39,789 bases of DNA from positions 1-39,789 of the forward strand of contig JAFIER010000230.1 of the NCBI GenBank assembly GCA_020832465.1, written 5' to 3'. Origin of the DNA: Bernardetiaceae bacterium (GTDB taxonomy: Bacteria > Bacteroidota > Bacteroidia > Cytophagales > Bernardetiaceae). This document shows, piece after piece, positions 3,339 to 39,789 of this stretch. How positions within the stretch are numbered: the stretch's first letter is position 1; the number at the start of each line of letters is the position of its first letter. The notes below the pieces were generated by a model, which saw only the letters and a list, made by a program, of their open reading frames with translations, did not search any database and had not been told where the DNA came from. The translations under genes and the position numbers were made by a program.

Positions 3339-4289
3339 ATGCCCGTACCAGATTATATTTTGGATAACATCATAGATAGCATTACCCATGGGAGCTGTAT
3401 CCTTATATTGGGTTCGGAGTTTCAGCAGCCACTCAAAGCGGAGCTGCTTACTTATTTGGGCTATCCCGAGAATAAAAATATTGAGTACCACGATGGTGAT
3501 TTTTTTTATTTCCAAGATAAGGCAAAGCTCACTGTAAAGAATCGCATAGGCAAGCGCATTCAGGGTTTTTATAACGAACATGAAATTCCTGATTTGTATA
3601 AAAAATTAGCGCGCATTCCCTTTGCGAGCTATGTATCACTCAACCCCGATATTTTACTTAATCGGGCTTTTGATGCCTTAGCTTTTGATTATGAGTTTGC
3701 ATATTACTGCAAAGGCGTAGCTATGAACGTCCCCGTAGAGCAACTTTTACCCGATAAGCCTTTGATTTACAACCTTATGGGGAGTATCAATAACTATGGT
3801 TCTATGATACTCACGCAGGAGGATTCTTACGACTATTTGATGTCTGTTTTAGATGAGTATAAATTTGATGACGGCTTAAAACAAAATCTTAGAAATATGG
3901 AAAATATTGTATTTTTAGGGGTTTCTTTTGACCGCTGGTATTTTAAGTTTTTAATCAAACTTTTGGGCATACAAGGCATAGAGCAGTTTGCTTTTGGCAA
4001 ATACGAAAACCTCGATAACGCCTCCAAACTTTTTTGCGAAAGCCACTTAGATATTACTTTTATCGATGACAATGTCGAGGAGTTTGTAGATGTGCTTCTC
4101 GAGCGTTGTGCAGAAGACGAAGTAGAACTAAGAAAACCCCTGCGCTTAGAAGAAATGATAGAAAAACTCAACTTTTTAAGGGAAGAGGAAGCTATTACCT
4201 CAGACCTAACTAAAAAATTTGAGCTCAAACAGCGCATTCCTGAGTTGGAGAGACAAATAGACGATCTTCGTACCCAAATAAATAGTTAA
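3339..4289 (+). CDS. SIR2-like (SIR2_2/ThsA-type) domain protein with C-terminal coiled coil, 316 aa
   Basis: A Rossmann-like start GSCILILGSEF. A block YVSLNPDILLNRAF resembles the TTNYD..LE motif. LIYNLMGSINNYGSMILTQEDSYDYL resembles KLHGS....lTe.DY. VFLGVSFDRWYF resembles the fIGYSl.D motif. The last ~60 aa are a heptad-rich charged helix (LRLEEMIEKLNFLREEE...ELERQIDDLRTQI). Confidence 0.5.
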   Translation: MPVPDYILDNIIDSITHGSCILILGSEFQQPLKAELLTYLGYPENKNIEYHDGDFFYFQDKAKLTVKNRIGKRIQGFYNEHEIPDLYKKLARIPFASYVSLNPDILLNRAFDALAFDYEFAYYCKGVAMNVPVEQLLPDKPLIYNLMGSINNYGSMILTQEDSYDYLMSVLDEYKFDDGLKQNLRNMENIVFLGVSFDRWYFKFLIKLLGIQGIEQFAFGKYENLDNASKLFCESHLDITFIDDNVEEFVDVLLERCAEDEVELRKPLRLEEMIEKLNFLREEEAITSDLTKKFELKQRIPELERQIDDLRTQINS

Positions 4290-4294
4290 AATTT

Positions 4295-10084: not shown

Positions 10085-10131
10085 TATTTATTCTTTGGAT
10101 TTGTAACCAAGAAATTGATAATCAAGGGAAA

Positions 10132-18696: not shown

Positions 18697-18875
18697 TTTG
18701 TCTGAATCAGGATTTACAGGATTTTGGGATTGGCAGGATTGAAAACCCTTCCCCTGTGTGATTTTGTCTGAATCAGGATTTACAAGATTTTGGGATTGGT
18801 AGGATTGAAAACCCTTCCCCCGTGTGATTTTGTCTGAATCAGGATTTACAGGATTTTGGGATTGGCAGGATTGAA
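18697..18875. repeat. tandem array (~2.7 x 66 bp) of the AGGATT-rich repeat tttgtctgaatcaggatttacaggattttgggattggcaggattgaaaacccttcccc
   Basis: Unit starts at 18697, 18763 and 18829 (period 66). Followed by hairpin cgattggcag/ctgccaatcg (18884-18915). Lies between the rhomboid gene and the mod gene 3' ends. Confidence 0.8.
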
Positions 18876-21525: not shown

Positions 21526-21527
21526 TG

Positions 21528-24500
21528 TTATATACTTTGAATTTTTTCGGTTAATTGATTTCTGATATTTCTGATGTCATTTGCAATTTCGATAAAATGC
21601 CATTCGTGGTATTGGTATTTATCTTTGAGTGCATTGGCGGCGGGCAGCCATCGGTTTTCGACAAACCATTTTTTTTCGTCTTTATCTTGACTAAAACCAC
21701 TAATTTCGATAATAAGGTTTTTGAAGATTTTGGGATTTTGTTTAGATTTTACTTTGACGATAAAATCTGGGAAATATTTTTTGTCCTCTCCATCTTTTTT
21801 GTAAGGGATTGCAAAATCTAAGAAATCATTTTTTACATAAGCGATTACATTATCGAGTTCTTCTAAGGTTTTGGCACAAACTCCTTCCCATGTACTATCC
21901 ATAACGACATAATTAACGTGGCTTTTTTGTGTGGCATAGACTTCCCGTGTTGTGTTTCCGTTTACATATCTCGTACTGCCAAATGGATTGTAGTTGTTGA
22001 ATACGGGTTTGATAAACTCGATGGTATTTCGTTGAGTATTTATACCTCTTATAATGTGATCTACGGCTTTTTTGTGCTCATGAAAATAGAGTGTTTTTTT
22101 GAAATAAGGTTCACGATTAAGCACTGTAATTTTATGGTTGTACCATTCGGTTACTATACCTTTTAGTGTAGCAAATTTTTGAAATTCGGGTTCTCCTTCG
22201 TCATTACTAAAATGATATTTCATAAGCTCCACCGTAAGTTTGAAGATAATTTCTTGGTCTCGCTTTTCTAAGACATCGGCGAGTTGTATTGTTTCTTGTT
22301 TTGCAGAGACTGCGCTTTGCATTGTAGTTACTTTGGGTACTTTTGAGCCGTCGATTTCATAATTTTCTAAATTCGCAAAGTCGTGCGTGAGCGGTGCTTC
22401 TAAGTTTTCGGTTCTGTATGCAATAATATTTGGGAATGTAATTTCCATTTCCTGCTCTCTTTCCACAAGTGCATTGATATGGTGCATGTTTACGGGCTTT
22501 ACAACAGTATTCGTTTGTCCTGCTTTAAACATATTGAAAGGTACGCCTATAATGTGTGCATACTCTGGGGGGAATTTTTGAATGACAATTTTTCTTTTGT
22601 CATCTGTGGGGTTTCCGTCTTTATCATATCCTTGCAAAAAGTAATTGACTCTTCTTAATGCTCTTCCTGCTACTTGCTCGCAAAGTAGCTGTGAGCCAAA
22701 GGCACGCAGCCCCATGATGTGTGTAACGGTATTGGCGTCCCAGCCTTCGGTAAGCATAGATACAGAAACGACGCATCTTATATGTGCGCCTAATTTATTT
22801 GTCTGCCCTACTGTATTTACGACTTCACGCAATATTTCAGCATCGGATATTTTTTCTGTGCTTCCTTGCCCGTGCATGCGTGCATAGTCTTTTTTAAACT
22901 CTTCGATTTCTTTAGCAAAGATTTTTTTAAACTCTTTATTGATTTGTTCACCGTTTTCTAGTGCATCGCTATCAATAAGCAATGTAGGCGGTTTTTTTCG
23001 GGGTTTTGTTGTATCGGGGTCATAATTAGAAAATAAATCTTTTGCACCTACTTGAATATGCGTACCTCCCTCTCTATCAGTATATTCATATCCAGCGATG
23101 TATTTATATACTTCTTTGGATACGCTGGTATTATTACAGACTACAATAAATACAGGCGGTGTAGAAAATAAGGACACCCCGTCTTCTTGTATACTTCTTA
23201 CTCCTTTGTCGTATTTTACGTAATGTGAGTAAAACTGCTCTAAGGCATTTTTTACAAGTGCGGGTATTTTAGGTGCTTCTTCTCTAAACCTATCTCCTTT
23301 TGCTTTTGCTTCTGCTTTTCGTTTGCTTACACCTTTTTTGGGAAGTTCTTTTTTGACATGTTCATACAGGTTTTTGAGCACCGGCTTATCTATACTCTGA
23401 GTATCGTCAGTCTCTGGCATAAATGGAATTTTGACAAGTCCACTTTCTATTGCCTCCACTAAACCAAAGTCTGATACTACCCATGGAAACAAACTATAAG
23501 CCGTATAGCCCGAGCCATTTAGGTAATAGGGGGTAGCGGAGAGGTCATAGACCGCCTGCATTTTGAATTTTTGCGCAATATTGCGCAAACCGCTGAACCA
23601 GACGGCTGCTTTAGCATTTTCATCACCTTCATTATCGGTAGTTTTACTTTTAGACTTAGGTAGGTAGCAATGATGTGCCTCGTCGTTTAGTACTAAAAGT
23701 CGGCTTCCTGTTTTAAATTTTCCCAAGACACGCTTTACTACTTGCGAAAAACCTTCTTTATTATCTGTATCTATTTTTTCTCCTTTGATATTTGTTTTTC
23801 CGTCAAATGGAGTTTTTTTATTGCCTTGAAGTATTTTAGGTTCAAAGCTATGATAATTCGTAATGATTAGCCTTGCATTGAGATTTTGCAAGCGAGAAGT
23901 CATATTTGAAGGTACTAATCCTCGTATATAATAGTAATCTTCTCTATTATGTGTATGATTTTGATTATCAACAAATAGTACATTCAACCTGCTTTTGATA
24001 GTGATACCGGGAGCTACCACTAAAAAGTAATCTGCAAAGCGAGTATCATTTCTGTATTCTTGTCTGTTGAAATAGTGGTAACAAATTAAACAAGCCATAA
24101 CAACAGTTTTACCACTTCCTGTAGCCATTTTGAAAGCTATTCTAGGCAGTTGGTCTTCTGTATTTTTACTTACTGTTTGCTGTCCTTTACGTAAAAGGTT
24201 TAGAATATGTTGCCCTGGATTTGATTTCTCTGCTACTTCGTTAAACCATATCGCAGTTTCTATAGCCTCACGTTGTGCAAAAAACAGCTTTTTTACGGCA
24301 TGCCTTTCAGGATTATTAAACCAAAAGTTCAAAAGTTGCTTTGAAATTCTTGTTGTGTTGGGATAGCTACTAGCTCGCCACGCTCCTACCTCTTTTCTAC
24401 ACAGATTTACGATATGTTCTTCTTGACTACCAGCACTTTCATTCCATTCAAATATTTCTTTGCCTCCTTTTCGCTTAGTTGGCGCAACAGGAGTACTTTC

Positions 24501-24638
24501 TTTGAATATTCGTCGTCCTTTTCTGATTTCCGTATAGTCTAAGCTACCGTCACTATCAGTGCTATAATATAAAAGAGGTTCATCGTACGGACTATTTAAT
24601 ATCGGATTATCTTTGTTTGCAGTTTCTACTAAATTCAT
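21528..24638 (-). CDS. res: Type III restriction enzyme Res subunit (SF2 helicase + PD-(D/E)xK nuclease), 1036 aa
   Basis: Q-motif [10 protein letters not shown]. Motif [12 protein letters not shown]. Motif [12 protein letters not shown]. Motif III LSATPY. Motif [12 protein letters not shown]-terminal nuclease-like PDFIVKV...IIEISG. Confidence 0.8.
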
Positions 24639-24790
24639 ATAGTCAATGTTATTAAATTATGATTTCACTGTGCAAGATAAAAAATATTGATATTAAAAAC
24701 TATTTTAAGTCATACTTTTTATCGCAAACAATATTTATTCGTATACACACAAATAAGAACATAAATATATTTCTATACGTTTCTCTGCAA

Positions 24791-24880
24791 TTTTCCAGAA
24801 AGCGTCTGGAAAATTGGGTATTCACCTGAAAAGTTCCTGTCTGAATTTGCCAGAAAGCGTCTGGCAATTTGGGTATTTGA
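24791..24880. promoter_or_regulatory. two direct 35-bp repeats, each containing a 6-bp-arm hairpin (tccagaaagcgtctgga; gccagaaagcgtctggc), 150-240 bp upstream of res
   Basis: Repeats at 24791-24825 and 24846-24880. Arms differ by a compensatory pair (t..a versus g..c). Located in the res/mod promoter region on the minus strand. Confidence 0.35.
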
Positions 24881-25091
24881 GAAACAACAAACGCATATTT
24901 TGCAGATTACTACAAGGGCATCGTTCACCAAGCGTACTGCTTGTGTACGCGCCTGCGTGTGGATAGCTACAATGTCGCTTATAAGCGTTTCTAAGTGATT
25001 TTCTATTGTCATTGTACGCACTTTTGATTTTAAATAGTGCTGCGTGGCAATATAAGGATTTTTTGTTTTTTTACGTAAAATTTAAGTGCTT

Positions 25092-25143
25092 TTTGTCTGT
25101 CTGAATCAGGATTTACGGGATTTTGGGATTGGCAGGATTAGAA
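25092..25143. repeat. single copy of the AGGATT-rich repeat (tttgtctgtctgaatcaggatttacgggattttgggattggcaggatta)
   Basis: About 90% identical to the units at 18697-18875. Lies between the res promoter region and the 3' end of the DUF1016 gene. Confidence 0.75.
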
Positions 25144-25239
25144 ATTCACTCACAGGGTCTTCGACTACTGGTAGGGATTTCTCCTCACCGACGACTGTGT
25201 GGTTGCTTGTGGCGATACCGTAGTGTTTGTTCTATAACT

Positions 25240-26337
25240 TCATCGCTTCCGAAGTTCTTTCAAAATAAAATTCTGCAATTCCTCTTCCGTAGGCAGTTGG
25301 ATTTTGTATTTCGAGATAAACATTTCGTTGCCTTGTGTGGGTAGGGTGTAGCGTGCCAAAGCCTCGTTTTTATCTGTAACCAACAAAATCCCAATAGGCG
25401 GATTGTCGGTTTCTTCTTTGATTTCGGCTTGGTAGTAGTTGAGATAGGTTTGCAGTTGGGCAATGTGTCCCGCTTGCATTTTATCTACTTTGAGTTCTAT
25501 TAAGATGTGGCATTTGAGCAAACGATGGTAAAAAACCAAATCTATAAAAAAATATTCTTCGCCTATCAAAATGCGCTTCTGCCTTGCCTCAAAACAAAAA
25601 CCATTGCCGAGTTCCAAAATAAAGTCTTGTAAGTGGGCAAGCAAGGCACTTTCCAAATCATTTTCATCAAAGGCTTGCTGTGGGCTTAGTCCCAAAAACT
25701 CAAAAACATACATATCCTTAATGGCATCTTGTGGCGTTTGTACGGCGATGGTTTGTTTTATTTTCTCAAAACTCAAGTCTTTATCCGCAGATAACCCCAA
25801 ACGCTGATAAGAAAGTGTATTGATTTGTCTTTGCAACTCCCGCACCGAAGGTGTAGTTTTGAGGGTAAGCATTTCGTAGTAACGGCGTTCTTTGGGATTT
25901 TCTATCGTCATCAAAATGGAAAGATGCGTAAATGAAATCCGTTGCAACAATAGCCTCGTATAATCAATTTCTTGATTTTCAGTATTTTGTAATTCGACCA
26001 TCACTGATGGTCGAATTGAGATAGGCAATAAAAATTGCTCTTGGACAAGTACCTGCCCTAAAAGTGGATAGGTTTGATAAAACTTTCTAAACCTTTTCAA
26101 ATGCGTAGCACTATTCAAACCCTTGATGGTTTTGAGTTCCTTGGCTAAGGTCGTAAAAAGTTTTGCGCCATACTTGGCTCTATCTTGCCCGTTTTGTTCA
26201 TACTCAACAATATACGCTCCGACGCACCAATTCCGAATCGTGAGCGACTGATTGATGCTTTGAGCGGCTCGGGCTTGCAGCTCGGCGTGAGTTTGAGTGA
26301 TGCTTTGTAGTAGATCGGCGAATTGCATAGACATCAT
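25240..26337 (-). CDS. DUF1016/YhcG-like PD-(D/E)xK nuclease family protein, 365 aa
   Basis: N-terminal helical YhcG-type domain. C-terminal nuclease core EFLGLSPQQAFDENDLESALLAHLQDFILELGNGFCFEARQKRI...FFIDLVFYHRLLKCHILIELKV (D...E.K). 63 bp downstream of and co-directional with 26401-29775. Confidence 0.7.
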   Translation of the reverse strand: MMSMQFADLLQSITQTHAELQARAAQSINQSLTIRNWCVGAYIVEYEQNGQDRAKYGAKLFTTLAKELKTIKGLNSATHLKRFRKFYQTYPLLGQVLVQEQFLLPISIRPSVMVELQNTENQEIDYTRLLLQRISFTHLSILMTIENPKERRYYEMLTLKTTPSVRELQRQINTLSYQRLGLSADKDLSFEKIKQTIAVQTPQDAIKDMYVFEFLGLSPQQAFDENDLESALLAHLQDFILELGNGFCFEARQKRILIGEEYFFIDLVFYHRLLKCHILIELKVDKMQAGHIAQLQTYLNYYQAEIKEETDNPPIGILLVTDKNEALARYTLPTQGNEMFISKYKIQLPTEEELQNFILKELRKR

Positions 26338-26400
26338 TACACCCTAAGCAGCTTGAAGATACTTAGGGTGTGAGATTTATAGATTTTAAAAATTAGTTTT

Positions 26401-29400
26401 CTACAAAATTTCCTTCAATTTTTGTACGCTATCATCTTGCACAAAATAGTTCATGTGATGGCAAGGAATATCGTAAATGACGGGTTTGTTTTTGCCACAA
26501 TCTTTGATGTCATCTACCAAAACAGCAATATCATTGGGCTTATTAGAGCTGACTAAATTGCCCATGCCCGCCATGACTTTCTCTACAATTTTTTCCATTG
26601 CCGTAGGATTTTCAGGCACAAAATCTTGTACATTGCCCGCCAAAATCAAATAAGGAATACCGCCCTCGCTGCCTTCGTCCTTGTTCAAACGGCGCAAAAA
26701 CTCGGACTCTTTGCCCATTTGTTCGAGCGTAACAAAAAGCGCCTTGCTCTGCTTGAGCGCACCTATAAGCCCCGCTGCCGAAAGCACTATGCCAAAGGGC
26801 GCAAGCAAATTCGCACCCAAGCCCATTGCCAAAATGGCAAACTTGCGGTACTGCTCAATTTTACCAAAAACAGAACCCGCATTCGGCGTGCCACACATAA
26901 TCAAACGATTCACAAAAGCACTACCCCCGCGCTGCTCAATCATATAACGAGAAACCAATCCGCCCATAGAATGTGCCACAATATCAACTTTTTTATCCGC
27001 CGAAATGCCGATGCTTTCATATTGCAAACCGTCTTTATACACCTCCGAATCGCCCACCAAAAGCCGCTTAAACTGATAAGCAATTTCGTTGATTTCGGTG
27101 TTCAGATTTTCATAATCAAAAGTCATAATCAAATCGTATCTGCCTGCTTTGACAAACTCATGACCCAAAACTGCCATCTCGGACGTATTGCCGATAATGC
27201 CGTGAACAAAAAGCAAAATCTTTTCGGCTTTAGCCACTCGCGCAGCCACTTCTTTGCGGTCTTCCACGTAAATGGGTTTGCCTGCTTCGTCATAATCAAT
27301 GGCGCAGAGTTTGAAAAAGCCCGTCGGTGGCATTTTCGTGAGCTTCGAGCTGACTTTATACAAACAAAACTTCAATGCCCTACCGAGGCTACGGCTCGAA
27401 GAAGATGTTTCAGGGAGATTTTGAATTTCCACAACTGAAGGGTCTTCTTCATTTGAGATGCCGATAGGAATGAGCGTATCACCATCGAGCGCCATCGGAA
27501 GCATTATTTCATCTTCATTTAAAAGCCCTTGATTCATTTTGAGACGAAGCGGATTTGTTTCACTTACGTCGCCTTGAATATTAGTGAGGCTAATCACTTC
27601 TTTGGCTTGAGTGCTTCGGCTCGAGCCGCTACTCAAAGATTGGAGCTGTAGCGAGTCATCGGCAATCCAATTTTTCCAACGTTTAGTACTCTTATCATTT
27701 AAACCCCGACCGCTGCTGCTTACGCTGCCAAAGGCTACTTGCGCCTCCACGCTATCGTGCGCCAGCACTTCAAAACCTTCAAACTTTGTGTTTTGAGTTT
27801 TTGAGATTTTGTCTTCATTTTTCAAAAGTTTTACGCCTACGTTGCGCACTGTCCAATCCTCAATTTTGAACGGAGAAGCGGCATTGTTTGCCTGCTGTCC
27901 GAAGCGACTGCCGACGGATTTGTAGCGTACGTTCAAGCTAAAATTATCTTGCGTCAGCACGTCGGGGTTGGTGCGTGTCGTGCTTATCAAAAACTTAAAT
28001 AACAAATCCGATTCGCTATCCTGCTCCTGCCCTTGCATAAAATTCAGTCCGTTTTTATCATCATAAATCAAAACTTCTTCATTTTTAGGCACAGGTACAT
28101 TATTGAGTTTGTAGATGCCGTAAAGCGGCGAAACTGCCAGTAGCGCAATATGCAACTCTGCCTCGTGTAGGTTTTTTACGTGGATTTTGCAAGGCAAGCC
28201 CAAGAAATTACCACGGCGGTCTTTGTCCAACAAAAACTCGAGGTCTTCGGAGCTATTGATATTATAGGACTCCCACTCACGATTGCGATAAAACTCGAAG
28301 CGCATCGGTAGGTCGCTGTCGCGAATTTCGGTATGCGGGTTTTTAATATCACGGAGGCGTTCCCAGCGTTGAATTTTGGCGAGGAGTTCGTTCCAATAGG
28401 GGGCGGGTTCGCGCCCAGCGGCGATGATTTTGTTCGAGAGGCGATGCACGAGTTCGTACACACCATCAGCATTTCGCACCAAAAAATAATCGGCTTCGGC
28501 TTGGCTTCGCGCTATGGCTACGGATAGCCCCGCCGTGAGTGCTTCGGGCTTAGCCATATCAGTATAAAACGAAAACACCGCCTGTGGAATGAAGGCATTG
28601 AGCGTAGCGGTATAGGTTTTTTCGGGGTCTAATTTATCTTCATTTTCTACCTTCATCAAAAAGGTATTGTCTATGAAAGTTTCATCGATTTGCGCTTCGG
28701 CAACTTTGTTTTTTCCCGAAAGGATGTCGACTTTTACGGTTCGGTCGTTCGCCTCTCTATCTACCAGTGGCATGCCGTGCAAAGCACCAGCTTTGATTTG
28801 CCATTTCTTTTCAGAAAAATAGACTTCCCATTCATCTTTGCGGTCGTCATTGGCAGTGCCTCTGAGGAAAGTTTTATAGACGGATTCGTTTCCGTAGGCA
28901 TCGACTTGTGGGGTCTGGCTGTTATCGATTTGTTTGATACGGGTTTGAATGCGCTCGAAAAGTCTGCCATAGCTCAAATTTGAAGATTCATTTTCTAAAA
29001 TATCGAGCAGTACGGTCGAGAAAAGCCCACGGTTTTCTTTGGTTTCCCAAGCTACCTGGGTATTGCTGCACGCCGAAAGTGTGATGTGGGGGGCAGCAGG
29101 GATTTCGATTTTGCCCGTATTTTTGAGCTGTTGAGCGTAGTATCCATCGGCATAATCCTCGATTTTACGGTTGTTGCCGTCTTTTTCGGCTTGGCGTTTT
29201 TTGCCGAGTTTGGCATTGCGTGTGCCCGAGCCAGAGTGGCAGCAGTCCAAAGAAACGGCAATATGAGGCTGATTTTGAGCGACTTCTTGAATCAGCACCG
29301 CCAATTCTTTGTCGGCTAAATCCATACCGCCCGGCTCTCGGCTATCGTAGCAAACGAGGGTTTCGTTTTTCTTTTCGGGAAAAAATTGATGAAATTCTAC

Positions 29401-29668
29401 GGGCGAACTCTCCCGTGAGCCGTGTCCACTAAAATGAAAAAAGGCGGTATCGCCCTGCTTGGCTCGGGCGAGGTGTTTTCTGAATCCTGCAATAATGGCA
29501 GCACGTGTAGCCTCTGCGTTGATAAGCACTTGGAGTTCTAACTCTTCGCTACTAAAGCGTTTTTGGAGTAGGGCTTGCATAGCTTGGGCATCAGCAGCGC
29601 AACCATTGAGCGGACTGACGGATTTGTAGTTGTCAATTCCGACGATAAAGGCAAAAATTTTAGCCATA
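26401..29668 (-). CDS. caspase-like (peptidase C14) domain fused to C-terminal alpha/beta-hydrolase (lipase/esterase-type) domain; 1089 aa from MAKIFAFIVGIDNY, or 1124 aa from the upstream ATG at 29775
   Basis: Caspase His/Cys dyad: FFHFSGHGS and LDCCHSGSG (DxCHSG metacaspase/orthocaspase signature). C-terminal hydrolase: oxyanion-type LLFVHGIIGNTSEM. Nucleophile elbow VDIVAHSMGGLVSRY (GxSxG). ~600-aa central region not recognised. Confidence 0.7.
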
Positions 29669-30140
29669 ATTTCTAAGGGGGTAAGAATTAAGTTAAGTTT
29701 TTGTGTACAATAGTTTTTTGTACGTAAAAAGAGGGGTTGGCGTTGTGTTTTTTTTGGATTGATTGCAACCGTCAAGAGGCTACCAATATGTAGTCCCTAA
29801 CGGGGCAAAAATGAACCTTTGCATCTGTAGCTACCAAGGTATACACCACCCCTCCCTCTTGGAACGTAGATACTCGATTTTCTCGAATAGTAAGTGCTTA
29901 GATTTGCTCATGATTCAACATAATTTTAAAGGTTATTAAGATTCCGAATTTACGAAACTTATGTGGATAAAGCAAAATTTATATAATTCTCATCTGAGCC
30001 AGAACCTTCTGCTTCAAGCTGCTGTAACTAAATACTCCTGCCTCAGTATTTAGCAACAGATATTACTTAAAAATTTTGATTACGCTAAAAAAACATAGAA
30101 AAAATTAGTAAAATTCGCAAAATTAGATTATATTTACACG

Positions 30141-31098: not shown

Positions 31099-31659
31099 TT
31101 GTATATGATTTACCCAATAGTAGCTTACGGCTATCCCGTATTGCGCAAAAGAGCGGAGGATATTCCCAATGATGGTTCTGTAGATGTCAAAACTTTGAGT
31201 GAAAATATGTTTGAAACAATGTACGCCGCGCATGGGGTTGGGCTGGCTGGTCCTCAGATCGGATTAGCTAAGCGCATTTTTGTCGTAGATGGCGCAGCTA
31301 TGGATCCTGATTTAAAGGATTTTAAACAGGTTTTTATCAATGCAGAGTTGCTCGAAGAGGAGGGTGAAGCCTGGGGTTTTGAAGAGGGTTGCTTGAGCAT
31401 TCCACATATTAGAGAAGAGGTTTTTCGTCAGCCTAAGATTAAGATTCGTTTTTTTGATGAAAATTGGAAAGCACACGAAAAAGTTTATGAAGGTATAGCC
31501 GCCCGCATCGTACAACATGAGTACGACCATATAGAGGGTATTCTTTTCACCGATCACGTAGGGGGCTTGCGTAAGCAATTGCTCAAGACTAAGTTGGATA
31601 AAATTAGCAAAGGCAAAATTACAGTGGACTACCGTATGGCTTTTCCAAAGAAAAAATAA
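31099..31659 (+). CDS. def: peptide deformylase, 186 aa
   Basis: All three PDF motifs: GVGLAGPQIG, EGCLSIP, QHEYDHIEG (HExxH). Confidence 0.9.
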   Translation: MYMIYPIVAYGYPVLRKRAEDIPNDGSVDVKTLSENMFETMYAAHGVGLAGPQIGLAKRIFVVDGAAMDPDLKDFKQVFINAELLEEEGEAWGFEEGCLSIPHIREEVFRQPKIKIRFFDENWKAHEKVYEGIAARIVQHEYDHIEGILFTDHVGGLRKQLLKTKLDKISKGKITVDYRMAFPKKK

Positions 31660-32728: not shown

Positions 32729-33967
32729 CTACTCTGGCAGGTAGAAAAGTCTGCTCATTTTTTCGGGTATCAAAATTTCTTGTGCAATATCCATCAAGAT
32801 TTTGGTTTCTATTTGCTCGATGCGTTCGAAAATATCTTGCATAGATAAATAAGGCTCCCCCGTAACAAGAGTTTTGCCAATGCCGAGCATTGTAGAGGAG
32901 TTGCTCTCTGCCCCCATAGCAATTTGTCCCATGAGTTGCTGTTTGGCAGTATGAAGTTGAATACTACCCAGCGGCACTTCACATAATTTTTTCAATTCTT
33001 TCTCAATGAGTTGTAGGCTTTTACCTAAATTTTTACTCTCTGTGGCGAAGTTGATAGTTGTGTATCCTACATCGCTAAAAGCGACATAAGAGGCATCGAC
33101 CCCATAAACAAGTCCGTGCCGTTCTCTTAAAATCATATTCAAGCGGGAGTTAAGCCCACTACCGCCAAGTAGATTGACAAGCATCATAAAAGGAATGAGT
33201 TTGTCTGTATCTGCAATAGAATAAGAAGGCAAACCAAGTACGGCATGCGATTGAGAAACAGGGCGATACACAATATGCTCTTGAGGCTGGTACTCGGCTG
33301 GGGGTAAACGCAACCTGCAACAAGTGCGAGGCGGGACATCTTTGATGTATTTTTCTACAATTTTTTTTACTGTTTTAAAATCCTGTGGAGAGACTACGGA
33401 GAGCACAAGCCTTTCTGTATCGAGGTGTTTCTCTATAAAATGTATAAAATCTTGCTTTTGAAACCGCTTTACGCTTTCTACCGTACCTAATATTTGCCTA
33501 CCGAGTGGGTGCTTGCCAAAAAATACTTCATCAAATTCATCATCAATGGCATCAGAGGGGTTGTCTCTATACATAGCCATTTCTTCTAAAATAACGCTTC
33601 TTTCCTTTTCTATTTCGCGCTCTGGAAAAATAGATTCGAACGTAATATCGCAAATAATATCTATTGCACGCTCTAAGTGTCGCTCGAGGACGGAGGCATA
33701 AAAGCAGATATGCTCTTTAGTTGTAAAGGCATTGAGATCACCACCGACGGCATCTATTCTATTTGAAATATGAAAAGCACGACGTTTTTTTGTACCTTTA
33801 AAAGCCATGTGTTCCCAAAAATGAGCCAAGCCTACTTCTTCTTCCTCTTCATCACGGCTACCGATATCCAAAACAATACCACAATGCGCTATTTGCGTAT
33901 GCAATGCTTGCTTATGGATTAAGCGAATACCATTCGCAAACTCATAAATAGAAAAATCTTCGTTCAT
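32729..33967 (-). CDS. M16-family (pitrilysin/insulinase-like) zinc peptidase, 412 aa
   Basis: Inverted zinc-binding motif HFWEHMAFKGT (HxxEH) near the N-terminus, with downstream Glu-rich region (ILEEM). Length and layout fit an M16 peptidase unit. Confidence 0.8.
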   Translation of the reverse strand: MNEDFSIYEFANGIRLIHKQALHTQIAHCGIVLDIGSRDEEEEEVGLAHFWEHMAFKGTKKRRAFHISNRIDAVGGDLNAFTTKEHICFYASVLERHLERAIDIICDITFESIFPEREIEKERSVILEEMAMYRDNPSDAIDDEFDEVFFGKHPLGRQILGTVESVKRFQKQDFIHFIEKHLDTERLVLSVVSPQDFKTVKKIVEKYIKDVPPRTCCRLRLPPAEYQPQEHIVYRPVSQSHAVLGLPSYSIADTDKLIPFMMLVNLLGGSGLNSRLNMILRERHGLVYGVDASYVAFSDVGYTTINFATESKNLGKSLQLIEKELKKLCEVPLGSIQLHTAKQQLMGQIAMGAESNSSTMLGIGKTLVTGEPYLSMQDIFERIEQIETKILMDIAQEILIPEKMSRLFYLPE

Positions 33968-34143
33968 AATATTATTTGAGTAGATGTACTGCTGTTTTTT
34001 ATCGTATAATCAACACAAAAAAAAGATTAATGTTGTATTTTTCATAGCAAAGATTTTTAAAAATTTTTGCTATGAAAAATAAAGCTGTAGATTAGCAGGC
34101 CAAGCAATCTTTACGTGCCAATATATTTTAAAAATTACTTTGC

Positions 34144-35319
34144 TTATTTTGTATCGATAAGTCCTCTTCCACTTTTCTTAATTTCTCCTGTGCTAAGTAG
34201 TTGTTCGGACATTTTATTAAGTACGCCATTAATAAATTCTCGGCTTTTGGGTGTGCTTAGGCTTTTAGCCAAATCTATATATTCATTGATAGTTACTTTG
34301 ATAGGAATACTTGGAAAATATACCATTTCTGTAACAGCCATGAGTAGAATAATTTTATCTATAAAAGCTACCCTTGATATATCCCAATTTACAAGCGAAT
34401 CTGCAATAATAGCAGAATATCTCAGTCTATTGGCTATAGTATTTGTAAAAAGTTCGTCGAAAAATATTCTATCTTCGTCCCAGTTTCGCGAGAGTTCAAA
34501 AATTTCTACGGGTTGTGGTTTTTCGAGGTCGAGGGCTTTGATTGTTTTGAGGGCAAGGGTTCTCAAAATGCTACGATTTTCTTGCCAGTTTAGGTCATGC
34601 TCTTCGAAATAGTCTTGTACAAACTCATTTCTAAACAAAAAGTCCCTTACAAGTTCTACGAGGAACTCTTGTTCCTCTTCAGGAGTATCTTCTGTAGGCT
34701 TTGTGATATATTTTTGATAAAACTCTTCTTGTTCGAGTTTTCGGAATGCACGCCTTACGAAATCTTTATCCCAATCAGAAACGAGTTTATCGAGAGTAGG
34801 GTTTTCGCTCAGTTTTTTAACGAGTTTGTTTTCTACAAACTTGAGTTCTTTTTTGAACGTAACACTTTCTAAAAGTTGTTTTTTATGGCGTTTTTCGTAT
34901 AGACTATGCTCGTGAAAATCAGCCATTTCTCTTATAAGCCTTAGTATTTGCAAGTATCTATCATGTAGCTCATCTGCTTCTTCGAGCATATATTTTCTAT
35001 AATTATCCTTATCTTTTTGGCATAGATTGCGATAATATATGATAGCTTCTTTTGCAATAGTAAGGTCTTTGGGTTTGGCTTCTGCAATATTTTCACCTTG
35101 TTGTTGCGCCTCGTTGAGGTAATTGAGTTTGAATACCGTTTGTGCGGCTTTCTCACCAGCGATTAGCTCTTCGGCGGGTATGGGTGTCATCGCATTGAGG
35201 TCGGGTTGATAGGCTTCTGCAATATACTCTAAGGCTAATTGATAATTAGCTTCTAAGGCTTGCTCATAAGCATATACAGCTTTTAAGGTCTTGAGTCGTA
35301 GGATTCTGCGATTTAGCAT
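34144..35319 (-). CDS. nusB: transcription antitermination factor NusB (long Bacteroidetes-type form), 391 aa
   Basis: N-terminus MLNRRILRLKTLKAVYAY and C-terminal NusB core INEYIDLAKSLSTPKSREFINGVLNKMSEQL...IKKSGRGLID. Confidence 0.65.
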   Translation of the reverse strand: MLNRRILRLKTLKAVYAYEQALEANYQLALEYIAEAYQPDLNAMTPIPAEELIAGEKAAQTVFKLNYLNEAQQQGENIAEAKPKDLTIAKEAIIYYRNLCQKDKDNYRKYMLEEADELHDRYLQILRLIREMADFHEHSLYEKRHKKQLLESVTFKKELKFVENKLVKKLSENPTLDKLVSDWDKDFVRRAFRKLEQEEFYQKYITKPTEDTPEEEQEFLVELVRDFLFRNEFVQDYFEEHDLNWQENRSILRTLALKTIKALDLEKPQPVEIFELSRNWDEDRIFFDELFTNTIANRLRYSAIIADSLVNWDISRVAFIDKIILLMAVTEMVYFPSIPIKVTINEYIDLAKSLSTPKSREFINGVLNKMSEQLLSTGEIKKSGRGLIDTK

Positions 35320-35529
35320 AAGCGCAATGGTATAGAACGTTTTTTTCTTGTCAAATTTGTAAAGAACTGCAAAACTACATTTTTTTTTTGAATCGTAAAA
35401 ATATAGATTGCGATTTTTTGTGTTTTATATCTAAAAAACTCTGACAAAGCCTGAGCGTATTCCTTAGTATTTCAATATGAAGAAATACTTATATACTTTG
35501 TTTTTGTACGTTTACAACCACTAAATGCA

Positions 35530-35730
35530 CTAATTACTGTCTTGACAAAACTTATCATAAGCGTCTGTTTTCATTATATCAATTTTATAATTCTCACTAT
35601 CTGTTTTTATAATCATTACGCTATCAAAACCAAGTTTATCTAATTTTTCAATCGTCGCCAGCTCGCCTTCTGAGAGCTGTAGAACTCTCCGTAAAAGCCA
35701 ATCAGAAAGTGCTTTATTGGGGTTTGTCAT
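35530..35730 (-). CDS. small hypothetical protein, 66 aa, third gene of the DUF3883 operon
   Basis: ORF starts 7 bp after the upstream ORF. No motif. Confidence 0.35.
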   Translation of the reverse strand: MTNPNKALSDWLLRRVLQLSEGELATIEKLDKLGFDSVMIIKTDSENYKIDIMKTDAYDKFCQDSN

Positions 35731-35736
35731 TAATGC

Positions 35737-36006
35737 CTACCCATTTTCGATATAATCAAAAATAAAATCGCTTAACTGTTCAAATTCTTCATCATGTTTC
35801 AGTATTATTCTTGAAGAAAGTTTACTTACCCAAGCTTGAATTTCTGCCTTTGAGCTAAGATTGGATAAAAACTTAAAATTTGGATTTTCTATCTCAAAGT
35901 TTCCTAAATAATTTAAAATATCGCCTTTGAAAGTGTCTGCATAACTTTCTATATCTCGGTCTAAATACTCTTCTAAATACGATATTTTTTCAGCCAAGCT
36001 TAACAT
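35737..36006 (-). CDS. small acidic hypothetical protein, 89 aa
   Basis: Overlaps the upstream DUF3883 gene by 7 bp (translational coupling). No motif. Confidence 0.4.
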   Translation of the reverse strand: MLSLAEKISYLEEYLDRDIESYADTFKGDILNYLGNFEIENPNFKFLSNLSSKAEIQAWVSKLSSRIILKHDEEFEQLSDFIFDYIENG

Positions 36007-36782
36007 ATATCCGAAATTAAATGATACTCTTTTTTTTGTTTTGGTTTAATAATTTTCTCGATAAACTTCAAATTTTTAATAGGATTCTCAATTAGCAAAA
36101 AAGTTGGCAAGTCATTTAGATTTAGAACCACAGAAACGACATAATTTTGCTTATATTTAGAAGCCATTTTAAACTCTTTTTCAGTTAATCTGAACTTGCC
36201 TTTTTTCTCACGAATGCCTTTGACTTCCGCCAAATAGGTGCTATCATTTACATTGATTTGAAAATCATACCCATCTCCAAACAATCTGGCATCTTCTAAA
36301 GTGCCATTTTTAAATATCTCGAGAGAGTCAAAATTATTCATAAAATACAATTCAGCTTCTAATCCTGTTTTTTGTAATTTTTTAAATCTTGATTTTACAA
36401 TAGGCGTTACATCAGCAGAAATACTTTTTATCTTATAATTTTTTCTCAAATAGAGTTTTACAATATTAGCATAGCTTTTTGCCGACTCTTTTCCAAAAAG
36501 ATTATCTATTAAATGCTTTCTATGAATATAGGCATCTCCCTTCTGCCACCAACCTTTTCTTCCGTTATTTGGAAAAAAAGGATCGAATAAATCCATTCTA
36601 TTCTTGACCACACTACCCGTTTTGACAATTCCAATTTCAACAAAATAGTTAAAAAAGTCAGTTTTTGTAGTAAAGCCAAATTCTTGAATAAATTCAATAT
36701 CAAACTTAGATAATCCATAACCAAGCAAATTCAAAATTTCATAGTTTTGATGTTTGCTGCTTTCTTGTTTCATAGAGTACAA
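36000..36782 (-). CDS. DUF3883-like (restriction-endonuclease-fold) domain protein, 260 aa
   Basis: C-terminal half GLEAELYFMNNF...GDGYDFQINVNDSTYLAEVKGI...FRLTEKEFKMASKYKQNYVVSVVLNL matches the DUF3883 pattern (G.eaE / GyDf.i / EVKg / lt.nE..A / Y.v.vV.n). Confidence 0.6.
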   Translation of the reverse strand: MYSMKQESSKHQNYEILNLLGYGLSKFDIEFIQEFGFTTKTDFFNYFVEIGIVKTGSVVKNRMDLFDPFFPNNGRKGWWQKGDAYIHRKHLIDNLFGKESAKSYANIVKLYLRKNYKIKSISADVTPIVKSRFKKLQKTGLEAELYFMNNFDSLEIFKNGTLEDARLFGDGYDFQINVNDSTYLAEVKGIREKKGKFRLTEKEFKMASKYKQNYVVSVVLNLNDLPTFLLIENPIKNLKFIEKIIKPKQKKEYHLISDIC

Positions 36783-36918
36783 TTAAGTGTGGATTTTTTA
36801 CTTCTGATTCACTTACAGACTAAGCAAATATACATACAAAAATCAAAAATGCAAAGCAATGACAAAAAAAACTCTGACAAAATTTTAAAATCTTGTCAGA
36901 GTTTTGAGTGAATAGTTT

Positions 36919-39396
36919 TTAACTTTTGCTTGGTGCATTGCCAAGGGCTGAGGTTTGAATAGCAGACTCGAGGGCTGTGCCTTTGAGCATATTGGCAAAT
37001 ACATCGGCGACGCTTTTGCCACCTAAGATAGAGAGCGGTGCCATGCTTTCAGCCATTTTAGCCGCTAAGGCACGGTCGCTGAAGTTTTGAAGGGCAGCTA
37101 CTAAATCCGGAGATATAGCCTCTGCTTTGCTCACTACTGCCTGCACTTCACCTTTGAGCTCTTCTAAGCGCAATTGCATCTGTTGCTCTGCAATAGCTAT
37201 ATCGATATCACTAACCGCTTTACGGCTCTCAAGGCGAGCGCTATTGATTTGAATCTGTAAATCCGCTTCTTTTTGTTCGCCCTCCAATTCTTTTTGGCGA
37301 CTTTCAATCGTCGAAGTAATGCGTGTCAGACTTAACTCAAGCTCTTTTTTCAACATCTCAATTTGCAAATCACGCTCCTCTTGCTTAGTTTTGGCACGCT
37401 CCTCAGCGATTTTTCTATCAATATCTTCGCTCTCTTTGATAAAAGAAAACTCCTGTCGCTTTGCTTGTAATGCTAATTTACGCCTTACTTCATTGTGCTG
37501 CGCTTCAGAAAGTATCGTGGAAATATCGTGATTCATAATATCTACACCGATGACCTCCACATCGTACACAAACATATTATTCTCTTCAAAAAAACGACCT
37601 TTTCTTTTACCATCTTCTGCCGACTGCTCGCCGAGTATGATATTGCGAATAATCGCAATGGCATCGCCATAAAAATCCGCTACATTATATTTTTTGCTCG
37701 AGTTGCGCAACACAGAACGCAGGTGGTCTGTCAAAAACTTGACGTAATTCTCCACATTAAACCACTTTTCGGGCTCTTTGATAAAATCTACCCGATAAGA
37801 TAAACGAACATCTATAGGGCAAAAATCCGCCGTCTCGATAGATACAATATCCGAAATTTGATTGTGCAAAGAACGCAAATATACGGTTTGAAGTACGTTT
37901 ACATCAGATTTCGGTGTGCCCGTAGAGAGGTCGACGACCCCCAAAATCTCATCGTACTCAAGGTTATACGTCTGCGGTCCGACAATCACTTTGCGTTCAC
38001 CTGTTTTGTTTACGACCAGCACCGCATAGCCCGTCCATACCTCAACCGTAACTGCCCCTTCATATTTTGTATCGAGAGTAACAGTGCGCGGTTTTGTAAA
38101 ATTATTATCCCTTACAAAGTCATCACCACCAATGCCCTCGGCTACATTTTGCGACCTTGAGGGCGAAGCTATTTTTTTGGTACGTACAACCTCCTTATCT
38201 TCTATAAAAAGGTCATCTTTGCCCTCCTCCAAAGCCGCGCGGCGCAACTGCCGATTGAAAGCCAATACTTCTTCGTTGCCAGGATACCATAACTTGGCTT
38301 GCTTTTCGGTCAGAATACGGCGCACAATGACCGCCTCTCGAGGGTCAGGTAAAAACATACAAGGACCTTTTTGCAATGCAATTTGCCCTGTGTTACGATT
38401 TAGAAAATAACGACCTTCGCCTTTGGGAATCGCTACGGCGTAATAAATCTCTTGCTTTCCATAGCGAATCAGTGCATGCTCAGGGCGTGGAAAATAAATT
38501 CGCTGCTCTTTGCCCGTTATAAAAAGCTCATCACCAATGTTGTATGCTTTATCGCCTTCTTGGTAAGCCGTAATTACTTTTACATAAATACCGCTAATTT
38601 CATTGAGCTCAATCGCTTTAAACTTGCGAAAACCATCTTTGACTACAAAAGTCTCCGTAGGCTCAGGAAAAACAACCGCCGGCCCCTCGATAAATCTTTT
38701 GTTGCCATTCTCATCTAACAAAATGCAATACTCCAACCGCTCGAGCGTAACGGCATCGCGCACATAATTGCCATTTTTATCGGGCACGACCTCCATACCT
38801 GTCGGAGGAATATAAAACGAAATATGAGTGCCTTTGATAATAAGCTGCTGACCCGTAGTAAAAGTAGGACTATCGCTTTCGCCGACAAGACTTGTATCTT
38901 TACCCCCTTCACTCGCCACATTAGACTGCTTCTTGACTACGGCATTTTCCCAGTTTTTGCGTGCCTGCTCCTCGTCATAAATCCGCACCACCAAATATTG
39001 ATTAGAGCGCAACTGATGACCCGGAATAATGCGTACCATCTGACCAGGCCAAAGCGCAAAAAAGGTCGGACCTGGTAGATTCACTTTCCGTCCAATATCG
39101 AGCTGTGAAATGCTATTAGATGTAGCTTCTTTCGGTTGCTTGGCATCATGGGCAGGATTTTTCAATACAATGTACCAGCCCTCGGGAGCTGTAGCAAAGG
39201 TTTGTATAGACTCTTCTAAAGAGCAAATACAAAACTGCTTTTTGTGGGAATCAAAATATACGGGTTTGTCCGTATTTGCCAAACTTGTTTTGTAAGGACC
39301 TACATAAGTGTTGATATGTCCTTTCGTTTGGTCAGAAATAAAAGCAAATTCGTTGGGGGCGAGTACTAAATCTCGCTCGCGGCTTGAGTCTGACAT
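36919..39396 (-). CDS. major vault protein (MVP) homologue, 825 aa
   Basis: N-terminal repeat LVLAPNEFAFISDQTKGHINTYVGPYKTSL parallels the first eukaryotic MVP repeat [29 protein letters not shown]. Several further ~55-aa beta-rich repeats. Shoulder-like segment IETADFCPIDVRLSYRVDF (cf. [21 protein letters not shown]). Long C-terminal cap-helix-like coiled coil (EERAKTKQEERDLQIEMLKKELE...). Confidence 0.7.
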   Translation of the reverse strand: MSDSSRERDLVLAPNEFAFISDQTKGHINTYVGPYKTSLANTDKPVYFDSHKKQFCICSLEESIQTFATAPEGWYIVLKNPAHDAKQPKEATSNSISQLDIGRKVNLPGPTFFALWPGQMVRIIPGHQLRSNQYLVVRIYDEEQARKNWENAVVKKQSNVASEGGKDTSLVGESDSPTFTTGQQLIIKGTHISFYIPPTGMEVVPDKNGNYVRDAVTLERLEYCILLDENGNKRFIEGPAVVFPEPTETFVVKDGFRKFKAIELNEISGIYVKVITAYQEGDKAYNIGDELFITGKEQRIYFPRPEHALIRYGKQEIYYAVAIPKGEGRYFLNRNTGQIALQKGPCMFLPDPREAVIVRRILTEKQAKLWYPGNEEVLAFNRQLRRAALEEGKDDLFIEDKEVVRTKKIASPSRSQNVAEGIGGDDFVRDNNFTKPRTVTLDTKYEGAVTVEVWTGYAVLVVNKTGERKVIVGPQTYNLEYDEILGVVDLSTGTPKSDVNVLQTVYLRSLHNQISDIVSIETADFCPIDVRLSYRVDFIKEPEKWFNVENYVKFLTDHLRSVLRNSSKKYNVADFYGDAIAIIRNIILGEQSAEDGKRKGRFFEENNMFVYDVEVIGVDIMNHDISTILSEAQHNEVRRKLALQAKRQEFSFIKESEDIDRKIAEERAKTKQEERDLQIEMLKKELELSLTRITSTIESRQKELEGEQKEADLQIQINSARLESRKAVSDIDIAIAEQQMQLRLEELKGEVQAVVSKAEAISPDLVAALQNFSDRALAAKMAESMAPLSILGGKSVADVFANMLKGTALESAIQTSALGNAPSKS

Positions 39397-39513
39397 ATTG
39401 TTTTGTGTTTAAGCGTGTGATAATACGAAAAAATAAGAAATTGTAAATCTTACACTAAGTGTATATCTTGAATACGCAAAAAGTAAACCCTGGGTTGCTA
39501 TATTTTTATTTTT

Positions 39514-39789
39514 TTTGTCTGAATCAGGATTTACAAGATTTTAGGATTTACAGGATTAAATTATAAAAGCCCATTTATCCCATCCTTGAAAAGGTGGGGA
39601 GCTTTGGAAATCCTTTTTTTGTCTGAATCAGGATTTACAGGATTTTAGGATTTACAGGATTTGATTATAACCGCCCCTTTATCAACTCCTTGAAAAGGTG
39701 GGGAGATTTAGAAAGCCTTTTTTTGTCTGAATCATGATTTGCAGGATTAAATTATAACCGCCCCTTTTATCCCCTCCTTGAAAAGGTGG
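39514..39789. repeat. tandem array (>=2.6 x 104 bp) of a longer variant of the AGGATT-rich repeat, truncated by the window end
   Basis: Units begin at 39514, 39618 and 39722. Each holds tttgtctgaatcaggatttaca(a/g)gatttt(a/g)ggatt plus a hairpin-like tcccatccttgaaaaggtgggga segment. Confidence 0.8.

Follow-up and report, generated by a model that had tools for sequence, protein, structure and literature searches.

A bacterial homologue of the major vault protein encoded by a stand-alone gene of a Bernardetiaceae bacterium

The rat vault is a closed barrel that consists of two half-shells, each with the major vault protein (MVP) in 39 copies. The N-terminus makes the contact between the two halves, and assembly of the eukaryotic protein is driven by its cap helix. 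For forty years, the function of vaults has remained an open question. The SPFH/Band-7 cage proteins (HflK/C, QmcA, stomatin, prohibitin, flotillin and erlin) have 250–430 aa and are anchored in the membrane. Eukaryotic MVP alone self-assembles into vaults (10.1101/2023.11.10.566534). Asgard archaea have MVP homologues, only ten of which are known; they are reported to have five repeats, and their assembly was only modelled (Nat Microbiol 2026, PMC12962969). Among bacteria, homologues were described for Microscilla marina (A1ZGE7), Saprospira grandis (H6L4P8) and Flexibacter (Bernardetia) litoralis (I4AHY9) (Daly et al. 2013, PMC3762200; Sokolskyi 2019, bioRxiv 10.1101/872010), and still in 2026 MVP was said to occur in "few bacteria" (PMC12962969). 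We found no published vault-like particles of bacteria and no experimental papers on bacterial vaults, although the homologues were already known in 2013.

The window analyzed here is a stretch of 39,789 nt from a Bernardetiaceae bacterium (contig JAFIER010000230.1). Its minus strand harbors a complete gene at 36919..39396, which in the ORF listing extends from ATG to stop (stop codon at 36919–36921) and encodes 825 aa. The start codon fits the family consensus MxxxNRERDLVLAPNEY. The identical protein is present at NCBI as JJT94_14895, "MAG: hypothetical protein" [Bernardetiaceae bacterium]. A preliminary description of this DNA had proposed a bacterial MVP homologue colinear with the eukaryotic protein, and the order of repeats, shoulder and cap helix was confirmed by Pfam, phmmer, a family profile and fold comparison. 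The peptides quoted in support were found at residues 10–39 (LVLAPNEFAFISDQTKGHINTYVGPYKTSL) and 520–538 (IETADFCPIDVRLSYRVDF).

A profile search for vault domains, as suggested earlier, gave two matches above the Pfam cut-offs. MVP_shoulder (PF11978) matched residues 512–621 with 92.8 bits (cut-off 25, E=2e-26, profile positions 3–117 of 118), and Vault_3 matched residues 461–507 with 32.8 bits (cut-off 28.8, E=8e-8). Both domains were found in all relatives of the family that were compared (42/42). The search of the 825-aa protein against the MVP chains of the PDB by phmmer resulted in 3e-10, and the family profile matched rat and human MVP with E=1e-24 across residues 459–770 and, weakly, a second time at residues 217–349. 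With residues 1–216 the profile retrieved no MVP chain from the PDB even at E≤10, and this part of the bacterial protein is without detectable sequence similarity to eukaryotic MVP. The likeness of N-terminal motifs that had been pointed out (LVLAPNEF... and IRIPPYHY...) is, therefore, one of the fold only and is not borne out by sequence statistics. NCBIfam gave nothing informative. Judging from these sequence comparisons, we concluded that the protein is a genuine member of the MVP family, with a similarity far beyond chance.

The protein is a further sequence of an already published bacterial family. The homologue of Microscilla marina has the same architecture and 56% identity over 99% of the length of the Bernardetiaceae protein, and 56% identity was also seen for the locus of Saprospira grandis DSM 2844. 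The published homologues of Cytophagales and Saprospiraceae share the Pfam signature of Vault_3 and MVP_shoulder, with or without Band_7; in our protein Band_7 reached 16.1 bits and remained under the cut-off of 23.6. The source of the published homologue from Flexibacter (now Bernardetia) litoralis even belongs to the same family as our organism, and the novelty implied before was overstated (PMC3762200; bioRxiv 10.1101/872010); the protein from the Bernardetiaceae MAG adds a new sequence, that of an uncultured organism. The view that bacterial homologues are sporadic also went too far. Clustering of the family at 90% identity gave at least 6863 clusters, 1290 representatives were counted at 50%, and 265 stretches with family members were found in a collection with one genome per species. 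Both in size and in taxonomic breadth, the bacterial homologues go far beyond the "few bacteria" mentioned in 2026 (PMC12962969).

The closest relatives of the Bernardetiaceae protein are just 60–62% identical, and identity was 55–61% across every bacterial lineage sampled. The N-terminus, the glycines and prolines of the repeats and the shoulder are invariant within the family, and N-terminal residues 6–48 are very highly conserved. The alignments point to strong purifying selection, which fits constraint by many subunit contacts. In a rough NJ tree the relatives grouped largely by bacterial lineage. The Bernardetiaceae protein was placed with two Cytophagales MAG proteins, apart from the other Bernardetiaceae entry.

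Structure prediction with 42 close homologues gave a pLDDT of 54.8 and an unusable N-terminal half. With a deeper alignment of 119 sequences the mean pLDDT was 84, and this model was used here. The prediction, which had also been suggested in the preliminary description, matched MVP folds: Foldseek returned rabbit, human and rat MVP with E=1e-34 and murine R1–R7 with about 1e-14, and MVP-type repeat domains were present N-terminal to the shoulder. Residues 9–361 (38314..39372, minus strand, as for all following parts of the gene) are predicted to form six beta-rich repeat modules with a G-x6-G(P) signature in each, namely R1 (residues 9–57), R2 (58–118), R3 (119–210), R4 (211–255), R5 (256–312) and R6 (313–361). 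A disordered insert is located inside R3 at residues 157–183. A further insert at residues 363–448 (38053..38310) is poorly conserved (0.17–0.21), and the secondary structure of the model comprises short helices (364–370, 375–390 and 400–410) and a disordered loop, with pLDDT <50 at residues 412–430. The family-invariant R429, which aligns with R437 of rat MVP, is located in this insert. The last repeat module at residues 449–498 (37903..38052) carries Vault_3, was aligned to residues 466–519 of rat MVP and corresponds to MVP repeat R9; it closes with an invariant S-T-G-T-P-K loop (S491, P495, K496). Profile similarity from module to module was weak, with at most 21% probability in hhalign between the slices of the module alignment.

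The shoulder domain at residues 499–622 (37531..37902) has a predicted alpha/beta fold of the SPFH/Band-7 type, and its fold-level kinship with SPFH proteins is real, as known for MVP. The cap helix at residues 623–758 (37123..37530) was one unbroken helix of 136 residues in both models and aligned with the cap-helix region of rat MVP as far as residue 810. It is the least conserved ordered part of the protein (0.35) and has only moderate pLDDT. A coiled coil of about 180 aa resembling the cap helix had been described before; the long cap helix was recovered, but its unbroken part is limited to these 136 residues, and beyond them the model has shorter helices up to about residue 816. The C-terminal segment at residues 759–825 (36922..37122) contains short helices and the conserved motif SPDLxAALQ...PLSILGG. 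Its helices at residues 765–816 were predicted with low pLDDT, and the C-terminal invariant columns among the 42 closest relatives extend from K757 to S795. By its position, the segment would equate to the cap ring of MVP.

Compared to eukaryotic MVP (rat, human; PDB 4V60, 4HL8, 7PKZ, 9BW5), the bacterial protein showed 12–19% identity in structural alignments. The model suggests about seven beta-repeat modules, while rat MVP has nine, and the cap helix of 136 residues compares to about 155 residues in eukaryotic MVP. Going by their description, the Asgard homologues, which are also prokaryotic, likewise combine repeats, shoulder and cap helix and have fewer repeats than rat MVP; they are only ten in number with five repeats, whereas the bacterial family is far larger, with about seven modules as read from the model. 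Since the Asgard homologues have fewer repeats too, nine repeats are a vertebrate trait and not a trait of the whole family (PMC12962969).

The NAD+/ADP-ribose pocket of human MVP is composed of R437, R504, K506, R507, P508, H509, R511, L517, D521, F522, W545, P565 and K573 (PMC12280208). Of these 13 residues, 2 were kept when the protein was aligned to rat MVP with HMMER, R437 (R429 in the bacterial protein) and K506 (K496); near R429 the alignment falls in a low-confidence loop. The other positions read T494, S497, D498, N500, L502, R508, N512, Q513, V536, E549 and D557. Within the bacterial family, R429 and K496 show little or no variation. As far as the alignment indicates, the human pocket is mostly not conserved in the bacterial homologue.

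Eukaryotic vaults have TEP1, PARP4 and vault RNA, while the scans of the window revealed none of them with the bacterial gene. The Pfam scan covered the ORFs of 120 aa or more, except 31099–31659 and three overlapping opposite-strand ORFs, and in addition an 89-aa ORF. No TEP1-like (TROVE/NACHT/WD40) or PARP4-like (PARP/vWA) partner was present among these ORFs, in agreement with what had been noted from the sequence. A vault-RNA-like ncRNA nearby, which had been proposed as something to look for, was not detected either: no Rfam match to vault RNA (RF00006) or its kin was obtained at the gathering score across the window. At E≤1 the region 33900–39789 gave nothing relevant, just a chance miRNA match on the terminator-like hairpin described below, and eight related loci contained two tRNAs and no vault or Y RNA.

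The terminator scan revealed a terminator-like hairpin at 36868..36905 (minus strand; 17-bp stem, 4-nt loop, T-run). It begins 14 nt past the stop codon of the MVP gene and lies between this gene and a DUF3883/NOV_C gene (36000–36782) with a small overlapping ORF. Upstream of the MVP start codon, an intergenic region (39397..39509, minus strand) extends to a repeat array at 39510–39789. A sigma-70-like match in this region (TTTACA-16-TATTAT at 39447–39420) is weak promoter evidence, and the TAnnTTTG motif of the Bacteroidetes type is absent from 39397..39509. The DUF3883 gene and the 89-aa ORF form a pair with a GC content of 0.29 and are compositionally foreign, while the MVP gene (0.44) resembles the housekeeping genes of the window. 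Close relatives of the DUF3883 protein, with 72–80% identity, come from records named Flavobacterium and Empedobacter. The two genes form a module of their own, which was also found in Flavobacterium pectinovorum. In none of 80 related loci did a tblastn search with the neighbors from the window find the pair beside MVP. When all ORFs located up to 6 kb from MVP in these 80 loci were clustered de novo, no neighbor recurred, and the best cluster, a generic ABC transporter, was limited to 7 loci. The MVP gene is a stand-alone unit without a conserved gene partner.

These data bear on the idea that the MVP homologue serves a conflict or defense system together with the adjacent nuclease-like DUF3883 gene. 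The DUF3883 gene and the repeat array, on which the preliminary description had based a possible conflict-related role, are indeed present, and the DUF3883/NOV_C protein matches the C-terminal domain, and no other part, of the TmtA models of PADLOC. The window also contains several defense-like genes (SIR2-STAND-LRR, a methylase with a ResIII helicase, a YhcG nuclease and a caspase-domain protein), and TEP1, a component of the vault, was recently shown to act as a TIR-like NADase with kinship to a bacterial defense protein (10.64898/2026.05.01.722283). However, the MVP homologue matched no model of PADLOC-DB v2, genes for NusB, an M16 peptidase and a deformylase lie between it and the defense-like genes, and the hairpin, the difference in GC content and the missing linkage of the independent DUF3883 pair all speak against such a role, which we consider very improbable. 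A defense island was rejected as an explanation after neither tblastn of the neighbors nor ORF clustering revealed linkage in the 80 related loci. Just as improbable is that the gene codes for a structural protein of a mobile element or phage, or that it came from a eukaryote by recent transfer or contamination, instead of being a resident bacterial gene. Phage MVPs were reported (10.1101/2023.11.10.566534), three huge "uncultured phage" records (LR756500, LR756501, LR756503) contain full-length homologues with 42–43% identity over 99% of the query, and a giant-virus protein matched the full-length model. While these proteins are encoded on viral genomes, the Bernardetiaceae gene is located among chromosomal housekeeping genes, and its protein had no PHROG match. 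Pfam scans of the window revealed no phage structural gene, and the sole mobile-element gene, a DDE transposase at 8922–10055, is about 27 kb away. The host-like composition of the gene and the grouping of its relatives by lineage also argue for a resident gene. With rat MVP from the PDB, even the best alignments reach just 12–19% identity, which excludes that the gene is of recent eukaryotic origin or a contaminant, and the contig carries bacterial NusB, deformylase and restriction-modification genes. Contamination by eukaryotic DNA was rejected on gene context, composition and this low identity. Carriage on a plasmid was considered as well, and no plasmid match was found.

The protein could also form a single ring or dome of the SPFH type on the inner face of the cytoplasmic membrane, like HflK/C, flotillin, stomatin/QmcA or prohibitin, instead of a free closed vault of two halves, and would then organize or shield membrane proteins. 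However, the MVP homologue has no transmembrane segment or hydrophobic anchor (maximum KD19 1.07), and about 500 residues of MVP-type repeats, which SPFH cage proteins lack, occupy the position of their anchor. The strongly conserved N-terminus would also be better suited to a contact between two halves. We consider a membrane ring unlikely. On balance, we regard the MVP homologue as probably a stand-alone, self-assembling cytoplasmic cage protein of a bacterial branch of the MVP family. The missing membrane segment, the MVP domains in 42 of 42 relatives, the fold matches of the model to MVP, the strong conservation, the self-assembly of eukaryotic MVP alone, the host-like composition, and the gene's own downstream terminator-like hairpin together with the absence of a recurrent neighbor are in favor of such a cage. 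The poorly conserved cap helix with its moderate pLDDT, residues 1–216 without MVP sequence similarity, about seven instead of nine repeats, only 2 of 13 pocket residues, the lack of a counterpart of TEP1, PARP4 or vault RNA in the scans and the lack of published bacterial particles are points against it.

By homology with eukaryotic MVP and the SPFH cage proteins, many copies of the protein may associate laterally, with their cap helices bundled into a dome and the shoulder and repeat modules as the wall. The product would be a homo-oligomeric cytoplasmic cage, large and hollow. Its barrel would be shorter than that of the eukaryotic vault because of the lower number of repeat modules. The conserved residues 6–48 may be the contact between two half-shells, and any cargo would be encoded elsewhere than next to the MVP gene. 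Only tentatively do we propose the more specific form, a genuine closed nanocompartment of two halves that resembles the vault, is shorter with about seven modules, assembles from a single gene product and takes up cargo encoded elsewhere.

The present results leave the knowledge of function unchanged. A genetically tractable bacterial counterpart would help with the question of vault function, and a bacterial cage, if it exists, would be a tractable system to learn what vaults are for. In that case, the broad spread in bacteria would suggest that the eukaryotic vault originated in bacteria, and the basic shoulder-pocket residues R429 and K496 could be traces of an ancestral nucleotide-binding site. 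The carrier lineages are mostly filamentous, gliding or predatory and include Cytophagales, Saprospiraceae, Myxococcota, Desulfonema, Chloroflexota, Riflebacteria and Sericytochromatia.

The MVP gene is an ATG-to-stop ORF of 825 codons (36919..39396, minus strand), and its start codon was consistent with the family consensus beginning MxxxNRERDLVLAPNEY. The identical protein is found in NCBI as 'hypothetical protein' of a Bernardetiaceae MAG. Both peptides quoted in the preliminary description were present, at residues 10-39 and 520-538. Pfam profiles placed MVP_shoulder on residues 512-621 (E=2e-26, 92.8 bits versus a cut-off of 25) and Vault_3 on residues 461-507 (E=8e-8, 32.8 bits versus 28.8); Band_7 stayed below the Pfam cut-off. 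The two MVP-family domains occurred together in 42 of 42 close relatives scanned. When all PDB sequences were searched by phmmer, the only significant matches were MVP chains (about 3e-10), with residues 340-767 aligned to rat MVP 350-808 and an IETAD motif common to both. The family profile matched PDB MVP at 1e-24 for residues 459-770, and in a second, weak stretch residues 217-349 were aligned to rat MVP 274-407. These results bore out the assignment as a bacterial major vault protein (MVP) homologue, and the claim of homology holds. The family profile of residues 1-216 matched no MVP chain of the PDB even at E<=10, and the earlier comparison of N-terminal motifs with MVP is therefore not backed by sequence statistics; its only support came from the fold match.

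An initial AlphaFold prediction from 42 close homologues gave a pLDDT of 54.8 and was poor outside the shoulder and the helix. Widening the alignment to 119 sequences, with identities as low as about 40%, resulted in a model with a mean pLDDT of 84 and a pTM of 0.64, and pLDDT was above 90 at residues 10-410 and 445-620. In Foldseek against the PDB the top matches were the MVPs of rabbit, human and rat (E=1e-34 to 1e-26), followed by crystal structures of the murine repeats R1-R7 (about 1e-14, TM 0.55-0.57 on the target); SPFH cage proteins ranked below both. According to the DSSP string of the model, six beta modules (residues 9-361) are followed by a poorly conserved, partly helical and disordered insert of 86 residues (363-448), a seventh beta module that is the Vault_3 match and the counterpart of rat R9 (449-498), the shoulder (499-622), a single continuous helix (623-758) and short C-terminal helices up to about residue 816. 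The model thus suggests about seven repeat modules as compared to nine in rat MVP, a count that the weak module-versus-module profile comparisons cannot prove. No hydrophobic segment was found in the protein (maximum 19-residue Kyte-Doolittle mean of 1.07), which therefore lacks a membrane anchor.

A word-indexed search retrieved at least 6863 clusters at 90% identity (E<=1e-5), a lower bound since scoring was limited to the 8000 candidates with the most shared words. The best relatives showed 60-62% identity, and many relatives are already named 'major vault protein' by JGI. Among 50%-identity representatives, searched exhaustively with HMMER, 1290 proteins matched at E<=1e-3, and 632 still did so at E<=1e-30. 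By scanning one genome per species we obtained 265 MVP-encoding stretches and retained 80. These were from Cytophagales, Microscillaceae, Saprospiraceae, Aureispira and Bacteroidales, from Desulfonema and Desulfococcaceae, from Myxococcota, from Anaerolineae and Caldilineae, from Riflebacteria and Ozemobacteraceae, from Sericytochromatia, and from Moduliflexus-like bacteria. Across these lineages, identity with the window protein varied little (55-60%). In a rough neighbour-joining tree, which is only indicative, most sequences sorted by lineage, Chloroflexota were intermixed with Desulfonema and Moduliflexus, and the window protein paired with two Cytophagales MAGs, apart from the other Bernardetiaceae entry. 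Three 'uncultured phage' records that carry no annotation (462-735 kb), LR756500.1 (20958-23387), LR756501.1 and LR756503.1 (17194-19599), also encode full-length homologues (42-43% identity, 99% of the query). A Harvfovirus 'prohibitin domain' protein of 802 aa matched the full-length model in Foldseek (E=3e-13).

Flexibacter litoralis, now Bernardetia litoralis, belongs to the same family as the source MAG. Bacterial MVP homologues have been described in this species, in Microscilla marina, Saprospira grandis, Herpetosiphon, Corallococcus and Plesiocystis (Daly et al. 2013, PMC3762200), and a 2019 preprint analysed them and remarked on a link with gliding bacteria (10.1101/872010). Phage versions were covered by a 2023 preprint (10.1101/2023.11.10.566534), and a 2026 paper, which reported five-repeat versions from Asgard archaea, still spoke of 'only a few Bacteria' (PMC12962969). 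The window protein is a new member of this described family. We found no demonstration of a bacterial vault particle in the literature. The question whether vaults are formed by bacterial MVPs is a genuine one, but the window makes it no more testable than do the cultivated species of the literature.

Downstream of the MVP gene (39396 to 36919), the minus strand carries, in this order, a terminator-like hairpin with a 17-bp stem and a T-run (36905 to 36868), a DUF3883/NOV_C gene of 257-260 aa (36782 to 36000), an overlapping ORF of 89 codons (36006 to 35737), NusB (34144-35319) and an M16 peptidase. The NusB homologue has 391 aa with the NusB domain on residues 253-371 only, and its N-terminal extension of about 250 residues gave no significant family match. 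GC content was 0.29 in the DUF3883 gene and its small partner; the MVP gene had 0.44 and the window 0.38. Conservation within the DUF3883 family is very tight, and relatives named from Flavobacterium and Empedobacter are 72-80% identical. In Flavobacterium pectinovorum a Vsr-like gene precedes the DUF3883 gene, and a homologue of the small ORF, also of 89 aa (51% identity, E=4e-29), comes after it, with no MVP nearby. The pair at 35737-36782 looks like a horizontally acquired nuclease-like module.

These neighbours had been taken as a hint of a conflict-related role. In the 80 related loci, neither the DUF3883 gene nor its partner ever adjoined the MVP homologue, and when all neighbours up to 6 kb away were clustered de novo, no family occurred in more than 7 of these loci. 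No PADLOC or PHROGs model matched the MVP homologue. The MVP gene is therefore a stand-alone unit without a conserved partner and its adjacency to the DUF3883 module is incidental; the suggested role lost its support, and we consider a function in defence highly improbable. A mobile-element origin is given similarly little credence. The domain scan covered ORFs of 120 aa or more, except 31099-31659 and three overlapping opposite-strand ORFs, and the 89-aa ORF. It revealed no TROVE, NACHT/WD40, PARP or vWA domain, in agreement with the earlier statement that no TEP1- or VPARP-like partner is visible. The proposed search for vault-RNA-like ncRNA was negative: Rfam detected no family, including vault RNA and Y RNA, in the window, and only two tRNAs in eight related loci.

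Eukaryotic MVP alone self-assembles, and in all SPFH relatives known to us from structures, the closed domes are built by the shoulder-plus-helix unit. Because of its homology to both, the most likely behaviour of the protein would be side-by-side self-association into a large hollow cage, which we regard as moderately probable. Conservation is strong in the bacterial family: the helix varies, while the N-terminus, the shoulder and the glycines and prolines of the repeats hardly change. This pattern is consistent with a protein that makes many contacts between subunits. The N-terminus, being invariant, would be apt for a contact between two halves resembling that of rat vaults, and a barrel of about seven modules would be shorter. 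A one-sided, membrane-apposed dome like those of SPFH proteins is unlikely, as the protein has no membrane anchor. Thirteen residues line the human NAD+/ADP-ribose pocket (PMC12280208), and in the alignment to rat MVP only two have identical counterparts (R437 to R429, K506 to K496), both invariant or nearly so across the bacterial family. Judged from sequence, conservation does not extend to the human pocket as such; the equivalent loop may form a different ligand site.

An interspersed repeat with the core CAGGATTTACAGGATT had 9 matches in the window versus 0.02 expected, at 39510-39789, 18697-18875 and 25107-25122. A 104-bp tandem array (at least 2.3 copies) lies upstream of the MVP gene and extends into the contig end, and a 66-bp array (2.7 copies) lies at 18697-18875. 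The repeat is not peculiar to the MVP locus; probably it recurs between genes throughout the genome and caused the assembly to break. Adjacent SIR2_2-domain, nSTAND1 NTPase and leucine-rich-repeat genes (3339-7557, plus strand) look like a candidate STAND-type defence operon. Its domain logic of NADase-type domain, STAND ATPase and repeats is reminiscent of TEP1; the MVP gene is 30 kb away, with no demonstrated link. A run of conflict-type genes (18949-29775, minus strand) encodes an N6/N4 DNA methylase (858 aa), a ResIII helicase (1036 aa) that matches, close to its C-terminus and below threshold, a TnsA-like nuclease, a YhcG PDDEXK/DUF1016 protein, and a protein of 1124 aa with caspase (Peptidase_C14) and DUF676/DUF7379 esterase domains. 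A DDE transposase adjoining a 902-aa SMC/AAA_23/AAA_21-type ATPase (8922-12840), in the lowest-GC stretch of the window (0.29-0.30), is probably a mobile or defence-related insertion.
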